From the NCBI GenBank assembly GCA_016204045.1, contig JACQLQ010000001.1, positions 257,792 through 321,791 on the forward strand: a stretch of 64,000 nucleotides of DNA, given 5' to 3'. The notes below the pieces were generated by a model. That model saw only the letters and a list, made by a program, of their open reading frames with translations. It was not told the DNA's origin and made no database searches. The position numbers were made by a program, and so were the translations under genes. Shown piece after piece: positions 3,098-59,153 of the stretch; positions within the stretch are counted from its first letter, which is position 1, and the number at the start of each line of letters is the position of its first letter. Source of the stretch: Parcubacteria group bacterium (GTDB taxonomy: Bacteria; Patescibacteriota; Minisyncoccia; Phycocordibacterales; UBA2135).

Positions 3098-3493
3098 ATG
3101 ACGTGGAAGGGAAAGTTCATCGGACTTGTGCTTGCGTTGACGGTTGTCGTCGGCGGCCCCTACATGATGTGGGCTTGGCCGACCGTTGATGAGGCGAAGA
3201 TCGTCGACGCCTCGAACAAGATCATCACTGGCACGACGAATGACCAGTTCCGCATCGAAACCGTGCGCGCAGACACCGGCAAGGTGTACGTGTATCGGAA
3301 CGATGATGCGCCGTACGTGTTCCCGTTCTTCTTCTACTTGAAGTGGGACAGCCAGGACCTGAACACTCGTGCCAAGTCGTATGCCGGCAAGGACGTCATT
3401 GTCTGCGTCCGGTCGTATGGTTGGCGTGTCCCGTTCATGAGCTGGTTCCCCAACGCGACAAGCTTGTGGGCCAAAGAGGGCGATAGCTGCTAA
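3098..3493 (+). CDS. Membrane-anchored hypothetical protein within the Ter cluster
   Basis: N-terminal TM helix, good RBS (GAGGAG). No recognisable family. Confidence 0.5.
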   Translation: MTWKGKFIGLVLALTVVVGGPYMMWAWPTVDEAKIVDASNKIITGTTNDQFRIETVRADTGKVYVYRNDDAPYVFPFFFYLKWDSQDLNTRAKSYAGKDVIVCVRSYGWRVPFMSWFPNATSLWAKEGDSC

Positions 3494-7465: not shown

Positions 7466-7536
7466 TGCGGGATCGTCTAATGGTAGGACATCGCCCTCTG
7501 GAGGCGAGTATCTTGGTTCGAGTCCAAGTCCCGCAG
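7466..7536 (+). tRNA. tRNA-Gln(CUG)
   Basis: Cloverleaf with U1:A72 and G73, Glu/Gln-type 3-bp D-stem, anticodon loop CUCUGGA, T-loop TTCGAGT. Confidence 0.8.
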
Positions 7537-13660: not shown

Positions 13661-14218
13661 ATGGCGGACAAGGCACTCATACTTGTCGATGTGCAGAACG
13701 ATTTTTGCCCAGGTGGCTCACTTGCTGTTCCTCGTGGCGATGAAGTGGTTCCGCCGCTCAATCGCATGATTATGTTCGCGGTTGCGCAGGGTTGGGATAT
13801 CGTCGCCTCCCGCGATTGGCATCCGAGGCAGACCAAGCACTTTGCGGAGTTTGGCGGCATCTGGCCGGTACACTGCGTGCAGGGAACACCTGGTGCTGAA
13901 TTCCATTCTGGTCTACACCTGTCCATGAGCTACTCGCAGTTCCAAGTTGTTTCCAAGGGACTTGGTGATGCGGACGATTATTCTGCCTTTGACAGCGGCA
14001 TGAAGCCAGAAGCGAAGCATCTCTACGTTGGCGGACTAGCCACTGACTATTGTGTTCTCGCTACGGTGAGAAGGGCGCTCGAGCTCGGGTATGAAGTGAC
14101 CTTGCTCACTGATGCGTCTCGGGCTGTGGACCTGAAGCCCGGTGATGGTGAGCGTGCTATTGCGGAGATGCAGGCTGCCGGAGCCGTGCTCGCGACTACC
14201 GAAGAAGTGATGGCTTGA
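13661..14218 (+). CDS. pncA: Nicotinamidase/pyrazinamidase
   Basis: LILVDVQNDFCPGGSLAV, the catalytic Cys in GLATDYCVLAT, and SRDWHP. Confidence 0.85.
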   Translation: MADKALILVDVQNDFCPGGSLAVPRGDEVVPPLNRMIMFAVAQGWDIVASRDWHPRQTKHFAEFGGIWPVHCVQGTPGAEFHSGLHLSMSYSQFQVVSKGLGDADDYSAFDSGMKPEAKHLYVGGLATDYCVLATVRRALELGYEVTLLTDASRAVDLKPGDGERAIAEMQAAGAVLATTEEVMA

Positions 14219-22150: not shown

Positions 22151-23371
22151 ATGACTTCGCGCGCATTGTTTTCTCCCGCACCCGTACTCTTGCTCGGAGG
22201 GTTACTCCTTGCTTTTGGCGCATACTTAGATATTCCAGTGCTTCGAGTGCCTGGCGAGCTAGTTGCGAACACTATCTTCGGCGTAGGACTTTCACCTGAC
22301 GAGCTTCGCGCCAGGTATTGGACAGGCCCTCTGCCTATATTGATTGTTCCCGGACACGACAACGCCTCGCGGGGGACACAGTTCAGGGGTTTGAAAGAAG
22401 GAGACCTTAACGTCACACTTGGCTATCTCCTCTACGACGTCTTAGCAAAAGACCCGCGTTTTGTGCCCATGATAAACCGCACCCCCGACGGGGAGTATGC
22501 ACTGTGGTTTGCTTCATACATGAAAGAGAATCGTGTTGCGATTCAGGAGTTTCGGACACAATCAAAGGTGAAGACGCGCTATTTTGCGACTCAAGGTCTC
22601 TATGATCCGCGCCGTCTTGTGCACCACAACCCCGCCGCGGACAATGTCTCTGTTGCGCTCTATGCCGTAAACAAATGGGCAAATGACCAAGACGTTCCCG
22701 TTGTGCTCCACCTTCACTTCAACGACTATCCGCGCCGCAAAAAGACGGAAGTCGGTGAATACTCGGGGTTTGCGATTTATGTGCCCGAAGGCCAACTGCC
22801 CAATGCGGGCGTCTCGACCGCGCTTGCAGAAATGCTCGCAGAACGTCTGGGGCGTGTCGTCGGTCCCAGCAACTTGCCTGGCGAGAAAGGGCCAATTGTT
22901 CCCGACCAAGAGCTCATTGCCGTTGGCTCAAACGGCTCTCGAAATGGCGCGTCGGCAGTGATTGAGTACAGCTATATTTACGAACCACAGCTCCACGACC
23001 CCGAGGTTCGTCAGCTCTTCCTTCGTGAACTAGCGCACCAGACGTATCTGGGGCTCAAGGCATTTTTTGACCCCGGGGTGCTTGCATACGCCGGAGTGCC
23101 CCCGACAACGTTATTGCCGTATGAATGGACATCAAAAACAGTTGTCGATGGCATGCGCGGTAAAGAAGTTTTTGCGCTTCAATCGGCGCTCCGCATTAGT
23201 GGATATTACCCGCCCTCCGGGCTCTCGCTTGCAAGCTGTCCATTGTCGGGCAACTATGGCCCCTGCACCACCTTTGCGGTGAAGGCATTCCAGCAAGCAT
23301 GGGGTCTCGCGCCATCCGGGTCAGCCGATGAAGCAACGCTCGAAGCAATAAAAGGCATTGGTGCAAAATGA
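22151..23371 (+). CDS. N-acetylmuramoyl-L-alanine amidase (Amidase_3-like) with a C-terminal peptidoglycan-binding domain
   Basis: ILIVPGHD, VVLHLHFNDYP...SGFAIYV, AVIEYSYIYE. C-terminus LQSALRISGYY...TTFAVKAFQQAWGL matches PG_binding_1. N-terminal TM helix. Confidence 0.7.
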   Translation: MTSRALFSPAPVLLLGGLLLAFGAYLDIPVLRVPGELVANTIFGVGLSPDELRARYWTGPLPILIVPGHDNASRGTQFRGLKEGDLNVTLGYLLYDVLAKDPRFVPMINRTPDGEYALWFASYMKENRVAIQEFRTQSKVKTRYFATQGLYDPRRLVHHNPAADNVSVALYAVNKWANDQDVPVVLHLHFNDYPRRKKTEVGEYSGFAIYVPEGQLPNAGVSTALAEMLAERLGRVVGPSNLPGEKGPIVPDQELIAVGSNGSRNGASAVIEYSYIYEPQLHDPEVRQLFLRELAHQTYLGLKAFFDPGVLAYAGVPPTTLLPYEWTSKTVVDGMRGKEVFALQSALRISGYYPPSGLSLASCPLSGNYGPCTTFAVKAFQQAWGLAPSGSADEATLEAIKGIGAK

Positions 23372-23477
23372 TCCCATTAGAAGTCGCGGGAATCAAAAGT
23401 GCGGTAATCCACGCAATGCCTAATTCTGAGTTGGGGAGCGTAAACGGTTTGTACGATTCCCTACTTCTAACGGGATG
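23370..23477 (+). promoter_or_regulatory. Copy A of a conserved leader element. 5' arm gatcccattagaagtcgcgggaatc; loop motif TAATTCTGAGTTGGGGAGCG; 3' arm gattccctacttctaacgggATG.
   Basis: About 19 bp of pairing between arms about 60 nt apart. The 3' arm ends at the start codon of the 23475 gene. Shares the motif CTTCTAACGGGATGAAAC with copy B. Confidence 0.45.
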
Positions 23478-23882
23478 AAACGGAAAGAATTTGAAAAACT
23501 TGTTTTGGAAAGCTACGCGGCACTGCCGTCGCGTTTTCAAGAGCGAGTCAAAAATGTAGCTGTCTTGGTAGAAGATGAGCCGTCGACTGCCCTGCGGCAA
23601 GAAGAGGGCCTCGTGCCAGATGAAACGCTTCTTGGACACTACCGCGGGATTCCTGCGACGGAGCGTGGAGAAGACTATGGTGTTGGGGTGACACTGCCGG
23701 ACACGATAACACTCTATCAAAAGCCGATTGAAGAAGCGGCGCACGAACTTTCGGAAGGGGTGGAAGGAGTGTTCGAGGAGAAAGTGAAAGAAGTGATCTC
23801 CGATACTGTGTGGCACGAATTTGCGCACTACTTTGGCATGGATGAAAATGATGTCGCATTGCGAGAGCGCGCGGAGGAGTAG
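23475..23882 (+). CDS. Zincin-like metallopeptidase family protein (DUF1025-like)
   Basis: HEFAHYFG (HExxH) near the C-terminus. About 135 aa, acidic. Confidence 0.6.
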   Translation: MKRKEFEKLVLESYAALPSRFQERVKNVAVLVEDEPSTALRQEEGLVPDETLLGHYRGIPATERGEDYGVGVTLPDTITLYQKPIEEAAHELSEGVEGVFEEKVKEVISDTVWHEFAHYFGMDENDVALRERAEE

Positions 23883-23903
23883 AGGTGTGGTATCATATTT
23901 TGT

Positions 23904-25184
23904 ATGAATGTCAGTGCATTTGAGGCGTACCACGCGCATTTAAAAAGAGCAGCAGAGATCCTCGGGCTCTCGGAGGAGACCGTTCTGCGTTTCCGTGAAC
24001 CTGACAGGAACATTGTAAAAACACTCACGATTGAACGCGATAGCGGCGAGCATGTGTCGCTTAGTGCCTATCGTGTTCAGTTCTCAAACGCGCGCGGACC
24101 TTACAAAGGCGGTATCCGTTTCCACCCCGAAGCAGACTTGGATGAAGTTAAATCACTTGCGGCTGAAATGGCTGTTAAGACAGCGGTTGTTGGGATTCCT
24201 TTTGGTGGGGCTAAGGGTGGCGTAGCTTTTGACCCAAAAGGGTATAGCAAGCAAGAAATTGAAAGGGTTGCGCGTGCCTATGCGCGTGCGTTCGCGGATG
24301 ATATTGGTCCTGATAAAGATATTCCAGCTCCGGACGTATACACCAATCCAGAGATCATGCAGTGGATGCTCGATGAATACGAGAAGGTGGTCGGACACGC
24401 GGCACCGGCCACATTTACCGGGAAACCAGTTCGCGCTGGTGGAAGCGAAGGGAGAGACACTGCGACAGCAGATGGTGCCATTTTTGTTTTAGAGGCATTC
24501 ATGAAAAAGAGAGGACTCAAGGTGTCTTCACAAGGTCGCGTTGCTATACAAGGGTTTGGCAACGCGGGGTTCAATGCTGCGCGCGTCCTTTACAATATGG
24601 GGTATACCATTGTCGCTGTCTCTGATTCAAAGGGTGCGATACATAAACCGACCGGTCTCGACCCGGAAGAAGTTAATCGTGTCAAAGAAGAGGGGCGTTC
24701 GGTTACAGAGCTCTATTGCAAAGGCTCTGTCTGTGACGCAAAAAAACTCGCAGATGATGGCGCGAGTGTTTTAAGTGGTGAGGATATATTCGGGGTCTCG
24801 TGCGATATTTTTATCCCCGCTGCGCTAGGTGGTGTTCTCACAAAAGAAAATGCATCTAAGGTGAAAGCTGCTGTGGTATTGGAGATAGCAAATGGCCCAA
24901 CAACCCCAGAGGCCGACCAGAGCCTGGAAGAACGCGGTATCGTCGTCATCCCTGACGTGCTTGCAAATGCAGGGGGTGTCGCAGTCTCATACTTTGAGTG
25001 GTTCCAGAACCAGAAAGGAGAAGCCTGGAGCAAGGAAGAGGTACGGAAGCGCCTTAAGGAGATGATGGAGAAAGCATTTGTTACTGTTTTTACTCGCGCA
25101 GAAAAAGATAAACTTACATTGCGTGACGCTGCTTACGCTGTCGCTTTTGAGAAAATTCTCGCGGCATCCCCCGAGAAAAGATAA
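23904..25184 (+). CDS. gdhA: Glutamate dehydrogenase
   Basis: KGGIRFHPEADLDEVKSLAAEMAVKTAVVGIPFGGAKGG and a Rossmann GFGNAG. Confidence 0.9.
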   Translation: MNVSAFEAYHAHLKRAAEILGLSEETVLRFREPDRNIVKTLTIERDSGEHVSLSAYRVQFSNARGPYKGGIRFHPEADLDEVKSLAAEMAVKTAVVGIPFGGAKGGVAFDPKGYSKQEIERVARAYARAFADDIGPDKDIPAPDVYTNPEIMQWMLDEYEKVVGHAAPATFTGKPVRAGGSEGRDTATADGAIFVLEAFMKKRGLKVSSQGRVAIQGFGNAGFNAARVLYNMGYTIVAVSDSKGAIHKPTGLDPEEVNRVKEEGRSVTELYCKGSVCDAKKLADDGASVLSGEDIFGVSCDIFIPAALGGVLTKENASKVKAAVVLEIANGPTTPEADQSLEERGIVVIPDVLANAGGVAVSYFEWFQNQKGEAWSKEEVRKRLKEMMEKAFVTVFTRAEKDKLTLRDAAYAVAFEKILAASPEKR

Positions 25185-25311
25185 GTTTGTATCGGGGTGT
25201 GGATAACTGCTGCTGTCATGGGTATCACGCTTTTGATATCCTTAAGTAGTAAAGCTGAATTAATGTAATTTATTCAGGTCGAAGTATTAATCAAAAAATC
25301 GTTCTTTTATT

Positions 25312-25500
25312 ATGGACGTTCTCCACAAAATCTCGTTCTGGCTTCTCGTCATCGGTGGTTTGAACTGGCTCTTGTATGTCTTGGGCTGGGAAGTCGGAGG
25401 TGTCCTCTTGGGCGGCATGGATGCCATGCTTGCGCAGGTCGTCTACGTTGTCGTAGGACTTGCTGCGCTCTTTGAGGTCTTCTACTTCTTCAAGAAGTAG
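25312..25500 (+). CDS. DUF378-like small membrane protein
   Basis: LLVIGGLNWLLYVLG is a DUF378-type motif. Two TM helices. Confidence 0.5.
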   Translation: MDVLHKISFWLLVIGGLNWLLYVLGWEVGGVLLGGMDAMLAQVVYVVVGLAALFEVFYFFKK

Positions 25501-25533
25501 AAGCAACAATTCATATCAGTTTCTTCTTTAAAC

Positions 25534-25560
25534 AAATCCCCTTCACGGGGGTTTTGTTTT
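25534..25560 (+). terminator. Rho-independent terminator
   Basis: aaatcccc...ggggg followed by TTTTGTTTTT. Confidence 0.5.
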
Positions 25561-25626
25561 TGCTACAATTGCTCGTTCCACAAGCATGGTATATGCTCGA
25601 GAAAGAAATAGACGAGAGGTCTCCCT

Positions 25627-26196
25627 ATGACAGGCGATGTGTGGAAGGTTGTAATGCAGCAGCCTGGATACTCTGGTAAGCGCCGCGATGAGATCCGTCA
25701 AGGGTGGGATAAGGAATACGGTCCTCTTAATTGGCGCATTGCGTGGCAGGTGAACGACATAGTTACTGATTTTCTTGGCGTGTGTGCGCTCTATGAAGAC
25801 GCATACTTCAAATTCTTGTGCAGACATCAGGATGTTCTTGCCACTCTCGTGAACCAAGCTTCCGAAGTCTATGATGATGCACCGTCCAATGTCCTGTCGG
25901 GTTTTAACTATCTAGCGCAAGAGACAAACCGGACGCATATCCAAGACATCGCCATTCGAAAGTGCCTAGTCCGCATGGCCCTACAGTTTCGGGGGAAGGA
26001 ACTTATCCGGATTCGTGACAGCAGGGGAACGCATCCGCTCTCAAAAACACTCTCGCCTGGTCGCATACCGTTCCATGTGCGGCGTCTCATTGTAACCCCA
26101 GAGCTTTCTGGTTGGTGGGAGAAGGGAAGCGTTGAAAGTTTCTATCAATCGAATAAGGTATTGCAAGTGCGGAAGGGCTCATCACCCGCAGCGTAA
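25627..26196 (+). CDS. Hypothetical protein
   Basis: ORF with a plausible promoter and RBS. No family recognised. Confidence 0.45.
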   Translation: MTGDVWKVVMQQPGYSGKRRDEIRQGWDKEYGPLNWRIAWQVNDIVTDFLGVCALYEDAYFKFLCRHQDVLATLVNQASEVYDDAPSNVLSGFNYLAQETNRTHIQDIAIRKCLVRMALQFRGKELIRIRDSRGTHPLSKTLSPGRIPFHVRRLIVTPELSGWWEKGSVESFYQSNKVLQVRKGSSPAA

Positions 26197-26198
26197 TT

Positions 26199-26226
26199 AA
26201 ACAGGAGAAATCCTGTTTTTTATTTC
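26199..26226 (+). terminator. Rho-independent terminator
   Basis: aaacagga/tcctgttt followed by TTTTATTTC. Confidence 0.55.
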
Positions 26227-26405
26227 GTCGAGCGAGTGGGCAAAATGAAAATGTTTCAATTTTCATTTTCTCCGAGCGAAGACGAAATGAGGGTAGACTA
26301 CCGCGCGGCTTGCCGCGCATTGCTGCGAGCGAAGCAAGCTCCTCCAATACCTCGGGGCTTGCCCCGAGGACACCTTTATTTTCTCCGTAATGATACAATG
26401 CGTGA

Positions 26406-27032
26406 ATGATAGATAAAGAGGTAAAACGCCGTGCCGCGGCACTCCTTCGTGCGCTTACGAAGTTGTTCCCCAATCCCAAGATTGTTCTCAAGTACCACTC
26501 CAACTGGGAGCTTTTGGTTGCGGTGGAGTTATCTGCACAATGCACAGACAAGAAAGTGAACGAAGTAACTGAAAGACTTTTTAAAAAATACAGGACTCTT
26601 GATGACTATGTGCGTGCCGACCCGCGAGAGTTCGAGATAGATATTCACTCCACGGGTTTCTTTAGGAACAAGACAAAGAACATTCTTGCGGCCGCAAAGA
26701 TGGTAAAGGAGAAACACGGCGGTCGTGTGCCTGACACGATGGAAGAGCTTATCGAATTACCGGGTGTTGCGCGCAAGACCGCAAACATCATTCTCGGAAA
26801 TGCCTTTGGCAAAGTAGAGGGGATTGCGGTTGATACGCACGTCATACGCCTTGGGCATCGCTTCGGGCTCTCGAAAGAAAAAAATCCGGAGAAGATTGAA
26901 AGAGACTTGATGGCGACCTTCCCCAAAAAGGAGTGGTTCAAGCTCACCTATCGCCTCATTGAATACGGGCGTAACTACTGTCCTGCGCGTGGATGTCCGG
27001 ATGACCACCCCCTAGCACGTTTTGACGCCTAA
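26406..27032 (+). CDS. nth: Endonuclease III (HhH-GPD glycosylase) without the C-terminal 4Fe-4S Cys cluster
   Basis: HhH motif LPGVARKTANIIL, catalytic K and D context. The C-terminus ends in CPARGC with only 2 Cys. Confidence 0.8.
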   Translation: MIDKEVKRRAAALLRALTKLFPNPKIVLKYHSNWELLVAVELSAQCTDKKVNEVTERLFKKYRTLDDYVRADPREFEIDIHSTGFFRNKTKNILAAAKMVKEKHGGRVPDTMEELIELPGVARKTANIILGNAFGKVEGIAVDTHVIRLGHRFGLSKEKNPEKIERDLMATFPKKEWFKLTYRLIEYGRNYCPARGCPDDHPLARFDA

Positions 27033-27058
27033 TTTTGAGTATTTTCTAATCATATTTT

Positions 27059-27091
27059 CTCTTGCATAGACTGGCTGGAGGTGTGTATACT
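27059..27091 (+). promoter_or_regulatory. Promoter TTGCAT-18-TATACT driving leader element B
   Basis: Hexamers read directly. The TSS would fall a few nt before the 5' arm. Confidence 0.35.
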
Positions 27092-27103
27092 TTCAGTTAC
27101 TAT

Positions 27104-27230
27104 GGAATCCCGTTAGAGGCCACGATCATTCGCAGGTTTCTGGCTGGAGATGGGAATAGCTTACCAATTTTAATTCTAAGGCGGGGAACGATTTTCATAT
27201 GATCGTGATCGCCTCTAACGGGATGGAACC
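27104..27230 (+). promoter_or_regulatory. Copy B of the conserved leader element. 5' arm ggaatcccgttagaggccacgatcat; loop motif TAATTCTAAGGCGGGGAACG; 3' arm atgatcgtgatcgcctctaacgggATGgaacc.
   Basis: About 22 bp of pairing (13 bp + bulge + 9 bp) across a 69-nt loop. The 3' arm contains ATG 27199 and ATG 27223. Confidence 0.45.
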
Positions 27231-27840
27231 AATGGATTACAACACGGGAGAGAAGCGCACCTCTAAAGGAGCTCTTTTTATCTCATTTATCGTAGGTATC
27301 GTCGTGGGAGTAGGTGGTTATTGGAGTGTAGACGAGAAAGGTTTTCTCGGTGATTTCTTGGCTCAACGCGAAGAAGTGGGAGAGGGGGTCGAAACTAGCC
27401 AGGAGAATGGAGGAGGTGATACGGTTGGAGATATTTTAAAGAATGCACGTCAGGCAGAACAAACTGCAGGACTTGTACAACCTGCCGTAGTCTCCGAGAA
27501 CAACGCACTTGTTGTCACAAACCAAAGCGCAGGCAACACTGTCCTCGTATCACTCGTTTCTCTCGAGCAGAGCGGTTGGGTAGCGGTACATGAGCAAACC
27601 CCCGAAGGGAACCTCGGTAACATCTTGGGCGCGCGTCGCTTTGACGCCGGAAAGCAGTTCGGACAATCAATCGCGCTACTTCGTGGCACGGAAGCAGGCA
27701 AGGTATACCAGGTGGTGCTTCACGCAGACGATGCGGATAACGTGTTTGATTTTAGATTGGAGCTTCCAGTAACTACTGCTGGGGGCGAAGGCATTGCGGC
27801 AGTCTTTACAGCGACAGCCGTTGAAGAAGTAGCATACTAA
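27199..27840 (+). CDS. Membrane-anchored hypothetical protein. The start may be 27223 or 27232.
   Basis: TM helix FISFIVGIVVGVGGYW, then a soluble domain. No family recognised. Confidence 0.55.
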   Translation: MIVIASNGMEPMDYNTGEKRTSKGALFISFIVGIVVGVGGYWSVDEKGFLGDFLAQREEVGEGVETSQENGGGDTVGDILKNARQAEQTAGLVQPAVVSENNALVVTNQSAGNTVLVSLVSLEQSGWVAVHEQTPEGNLGNILGARRFDAGKQFGQSIALLRGTEAGKVYQVVLHADDADNVFDFRLELPVTTAGGEGIAAVFTATAVEEVAY

Positions 27841-27842
27841 AT

Positions 27843-27891
27843 AGCACCAATTAAAAACACCCGCATGAGGCGGGTGTTTTTAATTGGTGCT
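27843..27891. terminator. Bidirectional terminator: a 49-bp perfect palindrome between convergent genes
   Basis: agcaccaattaaaaacacccgc-atga-gcgggtgtttttaattggtgct. Confidence 0.65.
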
Positions 27892-36699: not shown

Positions 36700-37617
36700 T
36701 TGCTAATCCCTAGTGGCTATATTATGGCTTCCATTTACACCCACAAAGATGCAAATATCAGGAAAACATGGCTTCTTATGCTAGGGTTTTTGATCGTGGT
36801 TATTCTCATTGGCTGGGGGTTTAGCTGGTACATGGGAGACGCCGTCGTCCTGTATGTCGCAGTTGCATTAGCTCTCGGCATGAATGTCAGCGCCTACTGG
36901 TGGTCCGATAAGCTTGTGATCAAGATGACAGGGGCTCACCCGATAACCCGCGATTCACATCGCGAACTCTGGAATGTTGTCGAGAATCTCTCCATCACCG
37001 CGGGGCTCCCAATGCCGAAGGTCTATGTGGTGGATGATCCGGCGCCGAACGCATTTGCGACAGGAAGGAACCCCAAACACGCAGTCGTTGCTGCGACGAC
37101 GGGGCTCTTGCAGATCCTGAACAAGACAGAACTCGAAGGTGTCATTGCGCATGAGCTTTCGCATATCGGTAACCGGGACATGTTTGTTTCAACGGTCGCA
37201 GTCGTTCTCGTTGGTTTCATTGCAATCCTCGCAGACATCTTTCTTCGCATGATGTATTTTGGTGGAGGTCATGACCGCGACTCTCGCGCCGGCGTTGCTT
37301 TTTTACTATTGGGACTTGTCGCTGCAATCTTGGCTCCCATCGCAGCGCAACTCATTCACTTGGCTATTTCTCGCAAGCGCGAGTTTTTAGCGGACGCTTC
37401 GGGGGCACTATTAACCCGTTACCCGGAAGGACTTGCCACTGCTTTGGAGAAGATTGCGGTGCATGGAATGGAAATGAGGAAGACGAGCCACGCGACCGCC
37501 CACCTTTTTATTGCCAATCCGTTTGGTTCGAATGGGAGGGGAATGCACTGGGTTAACAAGCTGTTTAGCTCACACCCTGATCCCAAAGAGCGCGTTCGGA
37601 TCTTGCGCGGGCTTTAG
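36700..37617 (+). CDS. htpX: M48 family protease HtpX
   Basis: HELSHIGNRD (HExxH), a TM-rich N-terminus, and the conserved C-terminus. Confidence 0.85.
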   Translation: MLIPSGYIMASIYTHKDANIRKTWLLMLGFLIVVILIGWGFSWYMGDAVVLYVAVALALGMNVSAYWWSDKLVIKMTGAHPITRDSHRELWNVVENLSITAGLPMPKVYVVDDPAPNAFATGRNPKHAVVAATTGLLQILNKTELEGVIAHELSHIGNRDMFVSTVAVVLVGFIAILADIFLRMMYFGGGHDRDSRAGVAFLLLGLVAAILAPIAAQLIHLAISRKREFLADASGALLTRYPEGLATALEKIAVHGMEMRKTSHATAHLFIANPFGSNGRGMHWVNKLFSSHPDPKERVRILRGL

Positions 37618-38617: not shown

Positions 38618-38702
38618 GGAGGGGTCGCATAGTGGTCTAGTGCACACGCTTGGAAAGCGTGCAACCCGAAAGGGTTCGGGAGTTCGAATCTCCCCCCCTC
38701 CG
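38618..38702 (+). tRNA. tRNA-Ser(GGA)
   Basis: Long variable arm, anticodon loop TTGGAAA, T-loop TTCGAAT, G73. Confidence 0.85.
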
Positions 38703-45854: not shown

Positions 45855-46204
45855 CCCCTGTATTGGGTAGTTGCGCTCCGATGTAAATCGGAGTGAGGAA
45901 AGTCCGAACACGCCCCCGACGTAAGTCGGGGAGGACGGTAGCGGGTAACACCCGTCTGGAGTAATCCAAGGGATGCGAGCAGTGACGCCAAGGCCGAGAG
46001 GCCGAGGGCTCCTTAGGGAGTAATCCCGCCGAAAGGCGGGGGTGAAACGGCCAAATTCCTATCTGCGTGCAAGGCCGTGGTCACTTCTACCAACTGGCAG
46101 AAGTGACAGTGCCGCTTGAGGTCTTGAGCAATCAGGATCCTAGATAAATAGCTGCCGTCCCGATGTCATGTCGGGATACAGAATTCGGCTTATAGATACA
46201 GGGG
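45855..46204 (+). ncRNA. rnpB: RNase P RNA, bacterial type A
   Basis: P4 strands GAGGAAAGTCCG... and ...ACAGAATTCGGCTTATAG. P1 pairing cccctgtat/atacagggg. A TATAAT box 9 nt upstream. Confidence 0.85.
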
Positions 46205-46213
46205 AACATACAT

Positions 46214-53346: not shown

Positions 53347-53417
53347 GCGGGCATAGTTTAGTGGCAGAACAGTTGCTTCCCAAGCAACGGATCGGGGTTC
53401 GATTCCCCGTGCCCGCA
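53347..53417 (+). tRNA. tRNA-Gly(CCC)
   Basis: Acceptor gcgggca/tgcccgc, anticodon loop TTCCCAA, T-loop TTCGATT. Confidence 0.85.
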
Positions 53418-57270: not shown

Positions 57271-57701
57271 TCCTCTCTCCTCTCTGGGTTTCCTTGTGAA
57301 AGAACAAAAATCTGCCCCAGCAGGGCAGATTTCGAGGCTTTGAACATCAAAGCCTGCCCTCTAGGTCAGGAGGTAAAAAGATATGTGGATAAAGCCAGAC
57401 CACGTTGCAATTTGATGATTATGAATCATGGTGTTGAAAGATATAATGTGGACCTACGGGGAATCGGACCCCGACCTCATCCATGCCATGGATGCGTAAT
57501 ACCATTTTACTATAGGCCCTAGTGAGGATTCAAAATGAGAACTTGCTCATATCTTCTCCGAGCGATGGGCCTATATCAATTCTCTCATTGATATAGGCCC
57601 CTTGGGGGAATCCTAACATGTTTCCTGTGGATTTCTCAACTATGATATACTGGTAGAACACTCTAAAAGTTGTTTTACCAGACTTAAGTATAAACATTTT
57701 T

Positions 57702-58019: not shown

Positions 58020-58091
58020 CCCCCCATAGCTCAACGGATAGAGCAATCCCGTCCTAAGGGAGAGATCCAAGTTCAATTCCTGGTGGGGGGA
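58020..58091 (+). tRNA. tRNA-Arg(CCU)
   Basis: Acceptor ccccccA/Tgggggg, D-arm tagctcaacggatagagc, anticodon loop GTCCTAA. One T-stem mismatch. Confidence 0.7.
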
Positions 58092-58186: not shown

Positions 58187-58258
58187 GTCCTCATAGCTCA
58201 ACGGATAGAGCGTAGGCCTCCGAAGCCTGAGATCGAGGTTCGATTCCTCGTGGGGACA
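58187..58258 (+). tRNA. tRNA-Arg(CCG)
   Basis: The same D-arm, anticodon loop CTCCGAA, T-loop TTCGATT. Confidence 0.8.
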
Positions 58259-59081: not shown

Positions 59082-59153
59082 GCCTGGGTAGCTCAGTGGT
59101 AGAGCGCTGCCCTGAAGAGGCAGGCGTCCGGTGTTCGATTCACCGCCCAGGCA
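59082..59153 (+). tRNA. tRNA-Phe(GAA)
   Basis: Acceptor gcctggg/cccaggc, anticodon loop CTGAAGA, T-loop TTCGATT. Confidence 0.85.

Follow-up and report, generated by a model that had tools for sequence, protein, structure and literature searches.

REPINs make no target duplications, have GTAG as their foot, are found between genes or at the 3′ ends of genes, and are associated with a RAYT gene; to our knowledge, Y1 transposition (IS200/IS605, REP elements) makes no target duplication. Correia repeat enclosed elements (CREE/NEMIS) duplicate TA and lie upstream of genes, off the start codon, with an IHF site and promoter-forming ends, and we know of no cognate transposase for them. The CREE hairpin is a known RNase III substrate (PMC2649163). 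Prokaryotic MITEs are taken here as defined in a review that mentions neither start codons nor CPR (PMC10969869). Rickettsia palindromic elements (RPEs) insert in frame inside ORFs, and the resulting protein includes their translated sequence.

Loci A and B of the window, by which we mean the whole 64-kb stretch of DNA analysed, each hold a copy of a small mobile DNA element with palindromic structure, and not a riboswitch-like sensor. The best overall explanation, which we hold to be very probable, is that they belong to a non-autonomous, MITE-like family of palindromic elements that rebuilds start codons, has an inferred translational relay and is widespread in Patescibacteria (CPR). The ligand- or temperature-sensor reading of the earlier note is thereby replaced by that of a MITE-like element, while much of what that note described was confirmed: the two loci have near-identical inverted arms of 13–14 nt, a common loop motif and the downstream ATG within the 3′ arm, this ATG is the true gene start at both A (Zincin_1) and B (DUF7282), and no classical SD precedes either ATG. 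The coordinates are given in Table 1. In the window, the arm motifs are confined to loci A and B, and the loop motif TAATTCTRAGNNGGGGARCG occurs exactly twice, with a chance expectation of 0.09. A covariance model run without filters found no third copy in the 64 kb.

Table 1. Features of element copies A and B and their neighbouring genes (positions in the window)
Feature	Position	Strand	Remarks
Element copy A, core TCCC...GGGA, 104 bp	23372..23475	+	between amidase and Zincin_1 genes
Copy A 5′ terminal inverted repeat, TCCCATTAGAAGT	23372..23384	+	
Copy A 3′ terminal inverted repeat, ACTTCTAACGGGA	23463..23475	+	ends in the A of the zincin ATG
Copy A left target-site duplicate, TGA	23369..23371	+	doubles as amidase stop codon; A23368 + TGA is the retained original ATG
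Copy A right target-site duplicate, TGA	23476..23478	+	with the element's terminal A (23475), rebuilt ATGA
Copy A relay uORF (putative), 36 codons	23368..23478	+	from retained left ATG through whole element to TGA overlapping zincin ATG
Zincin_1 metallopeptidase-family gene, 135 aa	23475..23882	+	start ATG 23475-23477 within copy A 3′ arm
Copy A loop motif, TAATTCTGAGTTGGGGAGCG	23421..23440	+	common only to copy B
Element copy B, core TCCC...GGGA, 116 bp	27108..27223	+	between HhH-GPD and DUF7282 genes
Copy B 5′ terminal inverted repeat, TCCCGTTAGAGGC	27108..27120	+	
Copy B 3′ terminal inverted repeat, GCCTCTAACGGGA	27211..27223	+	ends in the A of the DUF7282 ATG
Copy B left target-site duplicate, TGGAA	27103..27107	+	with A27102, retained original ATG
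Copy B right target-site duplicate, TGGAA	27224..27228	+	
Copy B mini-uORF, 4 codons, ATG GAA TCC CGT TAG (MESR*)	27102..27116	+	from retained left ATG to TAG within 5′ arm
Copy B putative promoter, TTGCAT-18 nt-TATACT	27062..27091	+	read from sequence; -10 box ends 10 nt before left ATG
DUF7282 membrane-anchored protein gene	27223..27840	+	start ATG 27223-27225 within copy B 3′ arm
Copy B loop motif, TAATTCTAAGGCGGGGAACG	27171..27190	+	

Further copies, which the earlier note had proposed to look for, proved numerous. Using a pattern that additionally required AATTCT, we found 36 loci in GTDB genomes, almost all of them Patescibacteria, and at least 120 loci were found in metagenomes with a pattern free of this constraint; pooled, they give at least 161 non-identical copies. 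Both patterns required two intact arms. Family members are 102–130 bp long, come nearly all from Patescibacteria, have the ends TCCCGTTAGARG...CYTCTAACGGGA and are too small to encode a transposase. Their 13-bp terminal inverted repeats (TCCCGTTAGARGY...RCYTCTAACGGGA) are near-invariant and usually adjoin an inner helix that covaries between copies and has a conserved 4-nt bulge offset on the 3′ side, while the AT-rich interior is not conserved and its architecture varies between subfamilies. The loop motif, though common to A and B, is not a family feature, as it was seen in 0 of 112 listed copies sampled without selection for it. The GAGG of the 5′ arm, once read as a conserved SD-like feature, did not hold up either, since the position is GAAG in 110 and GAGG in 38 listed copies. 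In the two helices, 98.6% of cells are paired among the listed copies, and changes in the arms are compensatory: arm position 11, with R and Y left free in the search pattern, is A-T in 110 listed copies, G-C in 38, G.T in 1 and A.C in 0. On the sense strand, the outer helix of the listed copies has 8 G.U and 9 A.C, hence no G.U excess, and such strict Watson–Crick pairing is the signature of DNA terminal inverted repeats rather than of a selected RNA helix. Comparison of the element with Rfam gave no match. We infer that so long a helix must act on the AUG embedded in it, as had been supposed.

Insertion duplicates a 3–5 bp target T-N(1-3)-A, overwhelmingly TGAA or TGGA. Of the 149 oriented copies among the matches listed, 116 have an exact 3–5 bp direct repeat at their flanks, most often as TGAA (56), TGGA (20), TGA (8), TGGAA (6) and TGTA (6). 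The original start codon is left in place at the left junction, where the matches listed have ATG (111), GTG (3), TTG (1) or CTG (1); the right junction is always ATG even though the left varies, so the A is supplied by the element. With this terminal A, the right junction always reads A+TGNA and the start codon of the gene is rebuilt. TG adjoins one element end in 152 of the 161 copies listed (94%), even with flanks left free in the pattern; for 142 of these it does so in the orientation that ORF length had selected. Orientation relative to target and gene is fixed, being the same in all start-codon copies. Elements also meet one another: contig L040 has one inserted in the internal ATGAA of another, and at the yidD start there lies a chimera of the outer 5′ end and the inner element with its own ATGA repeat, while L012 carries two tandem copies with one TGAA in common. 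With regard to an autonomous partner, 1.1 Mb of flanking DNA contained no long terminal-repeat pairs, no recurrent transposase-like protein was found near the copies, and viral contigs held no copy.

Copy A inserted recently, to judge from sequence comparison with a relative (L003) that is syntenic over more than 10 genes and has no copy there, and its flanks show a target duplication. The amidase stop and zincin start of L003 overlap as an intact ATGA, the junction reading ...GGAAAATGATATC... versus ...GCAAAATGA[TCCC...GGGATGA]AACGG in the window. The 36-codon uORF, which a gene caller also predicted on contig L002, would restore this ancestral amidase–zincin ATGA coupling. Folding of copy A gave -41.5 kcal/mol (z = -3.3), and that of copy B -54.9 kcal/mol (z = -5.5), with a 14-bp outer and a 9-bp inner helix. 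Copy B would represent a short type, in which a 4-codon uORF stops at the 5′-arm TAG, predicted to pair with CUA 6 nt before the AUG of the gene; this MESR* layout recurs in L003, L017, L033 and L036. Its promoter is kept in L003 and is called putative because the consensus scan did not call it. L003 also has its called DUF7282 start at the same ATG, and the other nearby ATGs of the window are not kept there. The orthologous site of L003 holds an element copy (13935-14051) of a different arm variant with fully complementary arms, from which the loop motif has been lost; at the more distant DUF7282 orthologues L163-L165 the copy is absent. That two species retain copy B at one site, its arms having changed in concert, could point to selection on the hairpin, and with it a host function, rather than to neutrality.

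Start codons are the usual site of the family, as the junction ATG opens an ORF of at least 50 codons in 135 of the 149 oriented copies listed (~90%). Pfam profiles begin at residues 1–6 for SSB, L9, TopA Toprim, LepA and GT2, indicating that these are true starts. The downstream genes, among them ssb, topA, infB, ftsH and lepA, are functionally unrelated housekeeping genes, the 132 downstream proteins of the listed copies are almost all unrelated, and essential genes carry the element at their starts.

The succession of a uORF from the left ATG and then the gene ATG suggests a translational relay. Among listed copies, the left-start frame is open through the interior in 40 of 115, compared with 33 of 230 for the other two sense frames (Fisher p = 2e-5, optimistic because the copies are not phylogenetically independent) and 47 of 345 for the antisense frames; shuffled interiors gave 14.2 ± 3.6 open versus the 40 observed. 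The frame distribution of 55/38/22 for frames 1/2/0 (p = 8e-4) and the preference of core lengths for multiples of 3 (p = 0.014) come from the same listed, non-independent copies, so that these values too are optimistic. Open uORFs end at the 3′-arm TAA, 4 nt before the gene ATG, in 29 cases and at a TGA overlapping the ATG in 6, and frame 0 is depleted, with 1 of 22 frame-0 copies open. Ribosomes would still initiate at the retained left ATG, keeping the original promoter or coupling context, and would translate into the element, melting the hairpin as they go; termination at that TAA or at the overlapping TGA, in about a third of copies, would be followed by re-initiation on the rebuilt ATG. 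The uORF stops early in two thirds of copies; the relay therefore cannot be the sole route of expression, yet essential genes carry the element.

A dedicated cis-regulatory RNA, whose riboswitch-like or thermometer hairpin hides the start codon and opens with ligand or temperature, is highly improbable. It would account for a start codon inside a stable long-range helix, for A and B folding far better than shuffled sequences, for the compensatory arm changes and for the lack of a match to any known family, but it does not fit an element with no conserved core, an interior built differently between subfamilies, and unrelated downstream genes. Copy A also inserted recently, with target duplication, copies are nested, chimeric and tandem, G.U is not in excess over A.C, most copies have GAAG in place of the SD-like GAGG, and helices that pair perfectly at -41 to -55 kcal/mol do not resemble thermometers. 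Almost certainly wrong is the idea that locus A is a small protein gene whose 36-aa ORF encodes a functional peptide. That ORF is open, has ATGA overlaps at both sides and was picked up by the gene caller; however, peptides of different copies are alike only in the arm-encoded residues M[NDY]PVR[SG]...[CY][FL], copy B yields just MESR*, and the enrichment is of frame openness, not of sequence. We also consider it distinctly unlikely that an HUH/Y1 enzyme (REP/REPIN-RAYT, IS200/IS605-like), rather than a DDE transposase acting on terminal repeats, mobilises the element as a hairpin of single-stranded DNA. Variable flanking duplications match their own target (TGAA, TGGA, TGTA), unlike in Y1 transposition, identical arms occur with different duplications (e.g. 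L013 and L034 versus L025 and L030), and no GTAG-type foot motif is present. On the other side, the element forms a hairpin over its full length, its inner helix covaries and its bulge is conserved, its orientation to a non-palindromic target is fixed, and the search of the flanking DNA yielded no autonomous insertion sequence, a situation also met with REPINs, which a single-copy gene serves in trans.

Two further readings accept a mobile origin or insertion and differ on what holds the element at start codons. Co-option, in which the element would serve its host as an attenuator or coupler of translation at gene starts generally and selection on expression level would keep hairpin and uORF, is unlikely in our view. 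In its favour, the left-ATG frame is open beyond chance, with biases in frame and in length; two species retain copy B at orthologous sites, its arms fully complementary; essential genes bear the element; and 14 clusters of orthologous genes, ssb, proS, lepA and rplI among them, have copies in different genomes. However, a selfish element with only harmless copies surviving fits the same data, two thirds of the uORFs are interrupted, and orthologous sites with different subfamilies (ssb in L028 and L142) look like repeated insertion, not conservation. It is possible, if doubtful, that the association with start codons is a matter of survivorship and not of targeting, the enzyme needing just T-N-N-A or TGNA. 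Intragenic copies would then be lethal, intergenic ones would soon be deleted or decay in streamlined genomes, and start-codon copies would be trapped because only precise excision keeps the gene alive. Since two intact arms were required on both sides in the search, decayed copies were invisible and the start-codon excess could arise in this way; non-start duplications (TAAA, TTTA, TAAG, TTTG) exist, as does one insertion in a non-genic ATGAA inside another element. Yet about 0.9 Mb of loci contain 3325 intergenic TG[AGT]A sites versus ~308 gene starts of that form, roughly 10:1, and 91% of the listed copies lie at starts; the adjoining TG despite free flanks and the fixed orientation to the target likewise argue for targeting.

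As a MITE-like family, the elements agree with prokaryotic MITEs in being shorter than 500 bp without transposase coding capacity, in their terminal inverted repeats and flanking direct repeats by target duplication, in the AT-rich interior and a transcript that would form a stable hairpin, and in their many copies with presence/absence polymorphism (PMC10969869). MITEs typically land in AT-rich intergenic DNA, whereas the present family sits on start codons in ~90% of listed copies, in fixed orientation and with its own terminal base rebuilding the ATG. Unlike MITEs, it has ends that hardly vary between several phylum-level lineages of CPR, and no known parent insertion sequence. With the CREE of Neisseria the family shares a palindromic structure (~100–155 bp), long terminal repeats, a short target duplication, and a position close to gene 5′ ends, where the present family too would be co-transcribed (PMC2649163), but the terminal repeat sequences are unrelated, CREE are restricted to Neisseria, and no positioned promoter was detected in the present family.

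RPEs are likewise palindromes of ~100–150 bp that survive in or at coding genes through their relation to the reading frame (PMC10969869). In contrast to their in-frame insertion, the present family avoids in-frame fusion, as seen from the depletion of frame 0, and the element would be translated as a uORF of its own, upstream of the gene. REP/REPIN sequences with RAYT resemble it as hairpin-forming extragenic repeats of ~100 nt whose foot is conserved and whose middle varies, and which have lasted through long evolutionary periods with no transposase next to them, yet none of the four REPIN traits (no duplication, GTAG foot, location, RAYT) was seen in the present family. The relay itself is closest to termination–reinitiation coupling at ATGA or TAA-N-ATG operon overlaps, with a uORF stop 4 nt before the gene AUG or overlapping it. 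Unlike in operon coupling, the upstream cistron would be a meaningless ORF from a mobile element, from whose stop ribosomes are predicted to reinitiate; at copy A, the ancestral ATGA coupling appears to have been replaced by two serial ATGA overlaps.

The inverted arms and embedded ATG described in the earlier note are present at both loci, and the 20-nt loop motif that they share occurs exactly twice in the window against a chance expectation of 0.09. A motif search of the window recovered the arm motifs only at loci A and B; a third arm-like match, at 37304, is a chance match within a coding region. Both copies are predicted to fold into a long hairpin, with energies of -41.5 kcal/mol (z = -3.3) for copy A and -54.9 kcal/mol (z = -5.5) for copy B, the latter having an outer helix of 14 bp and an inner helix of 9 bp. 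The ATG in the 3' arm was confirmed as a real gene start in both cases: that at 23475 opens a 135-aa Zincin_1 protein, and that at 27223 opens a DUF7282 protein and corresponds to the called start in the closest relative, in which the window's other nearby ATGs are not conserved. The deposited DUF7282 protein (P0121, window 27199-27840, 213 aa) starts at an ATG inside the element and is 8 codons too long. The host of the window is a Parcubacteria-group (CPR) MAG.

Positions of the two element copies and of other RNA and hairpin features in the window
Feature	Position	Strand	Remark
Element copy A	23372-23475		core TCCC...GGGA; arms TCCCATTAGAAGT and ACTTCTAACGGGA
Element copy B	27108-27223		core; arms TCCCGTTAGAGGC and GCCTCTAACGGGA
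Perfect 20-bp hairpin, T-runs on both sides	27844-27890		between convergent DUF7282 and MFS genes
Bacterial RNase P RNA, class A	45855-46208	+	130 bits vs gathering score of 100
tRNA genes (six)	7466-7536, 38618-38702, 53347-53417, 58020-58091, 58187-58258, 59082-59153	+	
tRNA gene (seventh)	57449-57519	-	

The perfect hairpin downstream of the DUF7282 gene is probably a bidirectional intrinsic terminator. Several helices of the RNase P RNA are shortened or missing, as expected for a reduced CPR genome, and four of the seven tRNA genes are clustered at 57.4-59.2 kb.

The two loci had been taken for a cis-regulator resembling a riboswitch or an RNA thermometer. The description as a structured element containing the start codon stands, but neither regulatory reading is supported. 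No match to either locus was found in Rfam 15 at gathering thresholds or at E-values up to 10. A conserved ligand-binding core was not borne out, as only the outer arms are conserved and the interior architecture differs between subfamilies. The GGGGARCG loop motif was found in 0 of 112 copies sampled without selecting for it; because it is confined to copies A and B of this genome, it reflects shared descent and not function. The coherent set of downstream genes that a riboswitch would have is likewise missing, the genes encoding, among others, SSB, ProRS, LepA, L9, TopA, FtsH, IF2, H+-PPase and PilB. Thermometers of the ROSE or fourU type hide the SD and/or the AUG in a weak, imperfect helix that opens at physiological temperatures. 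Here the AUG is masked as well, but by a perfect helix of 13-14 bp plus another of 7-9 bp, at -41.5 and -54.9 kcal/mol, and this reading is therefore not supported. The SD-like GAGG ascribed to the arm is GAAG in 110 of 149 copies among the matches listed, and the helix holds no SD.

The best explanation, and in our judgement a highly probable one, is that copies A and B belong to a MITE-like family resident on the start codons of CPR bacteria. The closest relative available, GCA_016204005.1 (locus L003), has a zincin 71% identical to that of the window and more than 10 genes in the same order. Its site A has no element, and the amidase stop and zincin start overlap there as ATGA: L003 reads ...GGAAAATGATATC..., and the window reads ...GCAAAATGA[TCCC...GGGATGA]AACGG.... 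Since the L003 site is empty with its ATGA intact, copy A arose by insertion, with the TGA duplicated on either side of it. At site B, L003 carries an element (13935-14051) whose arms, GATAGTGG/CCACTATC compared with GTTAGAGG/CCTCTAAC in the window, are altered in concert. The interior of this copy is unrelated to that of window copy B and lacks the GGGGARCG motif, and both copies are flanked as ATGGAA...ATGGAA. No element was found at the distant DUF7282 orthologues (L163-L165, two of them syntenic). In this pair of copies, as in pairs at ssb (L028 and L142) and proS (L056 and L110), the same start codon of orthologous genes bears different subfamilies, which suggests that one site was hit repeatedly and independently or that a resident copy was replaced.

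A scan of GTDB species genomes, using a pattern built from three copies and requiring AATTCT, returned 36 loci. The hosts are Saccharibacteria, Parcubacteria/Paceibacteria, and Kaiser-, Kerfeld-, Wildermuth-, Nomura- and Sungiibacteria; one evident chance match came from a Lachnospiraceae MAG. With a pattern of the arms only and free flanks, a metagenome scan gave at least 120 loci, and viral contigs gave 0 matches to the element pattern. The pooled set comprises at least 161 non-identical copies with cores of 92-130 bp (mode 117-120 bp). AATTCT was discarded as a family motif: no more than 2-3 of 112 copies contain it when it is not made a condition of sampling, and its prominence was a bias of the search pattern. 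Because the genome scan required it, the 36 genome loci are only a few percent of the copies present. Colonisation can be dense, with 4-5 copies per 8 kb in each of two loci, L022 (copies at 823, 3947, 5920 and 7488) and L040. Typical copies at gene starts also occur on two contigs (L023 and L029; CAZZBC010000001.1 and CAZZBC010000004.1) from a MAG that bears the label 'uncultured Gammaproteobacteria'. This label may result from faulty binning or classification; alternatively, the family may extend beyond CPR.

The best delimitation of the element is TCCC...GGGA. Its terminal inverted repeats of 13 bp (TCCCGTTAGARGY / RCYTCTAACGGGA) are 99.5% complementary in 58 aligned copies, and its ends read TCCCGTTAGARG...CYTCTAACGGGA. 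It is shorter than 500 bp and without transposase coding; the only ORFs are uORFs of at most 44 codons, whose sequence is not conserved. Most copies have a covarying inner helix of 7 bp (CGCGRWC/GWYCGCG), displaced from the outer one by a 3'-side bulge of 4 nt, and in other subfamilies a local hairpin beside one arm replaces it. The bulge also covaries with the inner helix (alignment A2 columns 110-120; e.g. window 27199-27210), owing to a direct repeat in the 3' arm, GAYC-GCG-AYC, which allows two alternative pairing registers that score equally. The helices are 98.6% paired, with many double changes, and at position 11 the 149 copies among the matches listed have 110 A-T, 38 G-C, 1 G.T and 0 A.C pairs, though R/Y was free in the search pattern. 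On the sense strand, the outer helix has 8 G.U against 9 A.C, and with G.U not in excess over A.C, RNA-strand-specific pairing was rejected. As judged from the alignment, the pairing pattern is that of terminal repeats recognised as DNA, with no RNA-specific signal. Gene-oriented copies have one common arm asymmetry throughout, and the idea that elements lie in both orientations relative to the gene was dropped. A covariance model scored the sense strand above the antisense strand at both window loci (68 vs 46 bits for copy B, 37.5 vs 28 bits for copy A).

Of the 149 TG-oriented copies among the matches listed, 116 lie between exact direct repeats of 3-5 bp, in the forms TGAA (56), TGGA (20), TGA (8), TGGAA (6), TGTA (6) and rarer ones; a few repeats are not start-like (TAAA, TTTA, TAAG, TTTG). 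The repeat originates from the target, because identical arms occur with different repeats. Again among the matches listed, the left repeat is preceded by A in 111 copies, by G in 3, by T in 1 and by C in 1, whereas the right junction is invariably A followed by TG; it is thus the terminal base of the element that supplies the A of the rebuilt start codon. The copies are dispersed and polymorphic in presence, copy A being missing from the syntenic relative, and some are nested, chimeric or tandem. In L040 (4117-4680), one element is inserted in an internal ATGAA of another, and the yidD start carries a chimera, made up of the outer element's 5' end and the inner element, that has an ATGA repeat of its own; apparently any two element ends can be moved together. 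In L012 (3560-3815), two tandem copies have a single TGAA in common, from which it follows that the element regenerates its own target. A search for a parent autonomous insertion sequence gave no repeat pairs more than 300 bp apart in 1.1 Mb of flanking DNA, and the DNA flanking the copies has no recurrent transposase-like protein cluster, the clusters there being housekeeping genes. Orphan arms in the flanking DNA are decayed or indel-bearing copies. To our knowledge, the parent insertion sequence is likewise missing for accepted MITEs such as Correia elements.

Among the matches listed, 135 of the 149 oriented copies have a junction ATG that begins an ORF of 50 codons or more. Pfam profiles for SSB, L9, TopA, LepA and GT2 begin at residues 1-6 of the downstream ORFs, and the junction ATGs are therefore real starts. 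The 132 downstream proteins are nearly all unrelated and almost all singletons. Essential genes downstream include ssb, proS, a second class II aminoacyl-tRNA synthetase gene (tRNA-synt_2b and HGTP_anticodon domains), lepA, rplI, topA, ftsH, infB, H+-PPase and pilB.

At the 5' junction, the original start codon (the left ATG) is retained together with its original upstream context. No SD peak was seen upstream of this left start, and the idea of a hairpin that brings an upstream SD next to the AUG was rejected. Instances of -10-like hexamers peak 6-7 nt before it (15 and 15 among 115 copies), a leaderless-like arrangement that is common in these loci generally and suggests that leaderless mRNAs are common in these Patescibacteria loci. 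Across the compared loci L007-L162, there is little Shine-Dalgarno signal, and -10-like hexamers lie 6-7 nt before the start in about 18% of 612 long ORFs. The window's own genome makes more use of the SD, with a peak at a spacing of 7-8.

The frame beginning at the left ATG is open through the interior in 40 of 115 copies among the matches listed, compared with 33 of 230 for the other sense frames (Fisher p = 2e-5), 47 of 345 for antisense frames and 14.2 +/- 3.6 copies when the interiors are shuffled. Relative to the gene, this uORF is enriched in frame 1 (55) and depleted in frame 0, the in-frame position (22), with 38 in frame 2 (p = 8e-4); the core length is biased towards multiples of three (p = 0.014). 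For 29 uORFs, 33-44 codons long, the stop is the 3'-arm TAA located 4 nt upstream of the gene's ATG, and for 6 it is a TGA overlapping that ATG. The only residues common to their peptides are those encoded by the arms. On this pattern of frames, the conserved property is translation across the element and not a peptide sequence. In a relay of this kind, ribosomes would initiate at the old ATG, open the hairpin as they advance, stop at the gene's ATG and initiate again there; such a relay, supported by the frame statistics, could be the main expression route, a tentative reading that we place just short of an even call. Copy A fits it exactly, the ancestral amidase-zincin ATGA coupling having become amidase-TGA/ATG-uORF(36 codons)-TGA/ATG-zincin. 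This uORF is annotated as a spurious 36-aa ORF on contig L002 (2497-2607). Copy B is of a minority type with a 5-bp duplication, and its uORF encodes MESR and stops at the 5'-arm TAG, which in the predicted helix pairs with CUA 6 nt before the gene's AUG. As two thirds of the copies have early stops in the uORF, a second expression route must operate besides the relay. Reinitiation across the opened helix, RNase III processing and an internal promoter are the candidates. RNase III processing occurs in Correia elements (PMC2649163). For an internal outward promoter, -10-like hexamers are common on both strands of the element and have no positional peak.

Start codons are occupied by 91% of the copies. 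In about 0.9 Mb of these loci, TG[AGT]A occurs at 3325 intergenic positions and at about 308 gene starts, and with intergenic sites so far in excess, a target motif combined with purging of intragenic insertions does not explain this occupancy. The bias may reflect true targeting of start sites. It may instead be survivorship, in that copies on starts are lost only by precise excision, and the search patterns, which required both arms intact, favour survivors. Taken further, targeting would make this a selfish element, harmless by design, whose specific homing site throughout the CPR radiation is the start codon, a possible account that we lean against more than towards. Its last base would regenerate the ATG and hence its own target, allowing tandem stacking, and the retained upstream ATG, open relay uORF and arm TAA would pass ribosomes to the gene. 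Even essential genes (topA, infB, ftsH, ssb) would be open to colonisation, and an element would be lost only by precise excision. Such homing would use a feature of start sites beyond ATGNA, for example the open complex at leaderless promoters, and an as yet undescribed enzyme would mobilise the element.

CPR/Patescibacteria have small genomes in which mobile DNA is thought to be scarce. In them, one repeat family, its ends conserved across several phylum-level lineages, occupies the start codon of hundreds of genes, some of them essential. If start-codon specificity and the relay uORF both hold true, mobile DNA can occupy a start codon without breaking the gene. Gene callers misplace starts at element sites, and the family amounts to more than 100 natural experiments on how translation begins in bacteria that are poor in SD sequences and rich in leaderless mRNAs. 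For structured-RNA screens, a conserved hairpin with compensatory changes and no Rfam match need not be a riboswitch.

Several known kinds of palindromic repeat were compared with the MITE-like family. REP/REPIN-RAYT systems have no target duplication, a GTAG foot and a linked RAYT gene, whereas here target duplications are present, the GTAG foot is missing, and no RAYT-like recurrent gene occurs in the flanking DNA searched. IS200/IS605-derived palindromic elements insert 3' of a fixed tetra- or pentanucleotide without duplication; here the flanking repeat varies (TGAA, TGGA, TGTA, TAAA) among copies with identical arms. Helix polarity, target duplications and foot motifs, judged partly on established knowledge, speak against attC-like, IS200/IS605-like and REP-like models alike. 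The Correia repeat enclosed element has a 26-bp terminal repeat, a TA duplication and a Neisseria host (in part, PMC2649163), and was ruled out on the different repeat sequence, TGNA duplication and Patescibacteria hosts found here. A 2024 review defines MITEs as short, AT-rich and dispersed, with terminal repeats, target duplications and a hairpin transcript (PMC10969869); the start-codon family falls within this definition, its parent insertion sequence not having been found in the flanking DNA searched. Searches of the literature on MITEs with start codons, CPR or Patescibacteria, and on the arm sequences, gave no description of it. The element resembles Correia elements and ERIC in size and palindromy, and Rickettsia RPEs in surviving at coding sequence. 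Unlike all three, it sits on the start codon, restores the ATG from its own terminus and avoids in-frame fusion.
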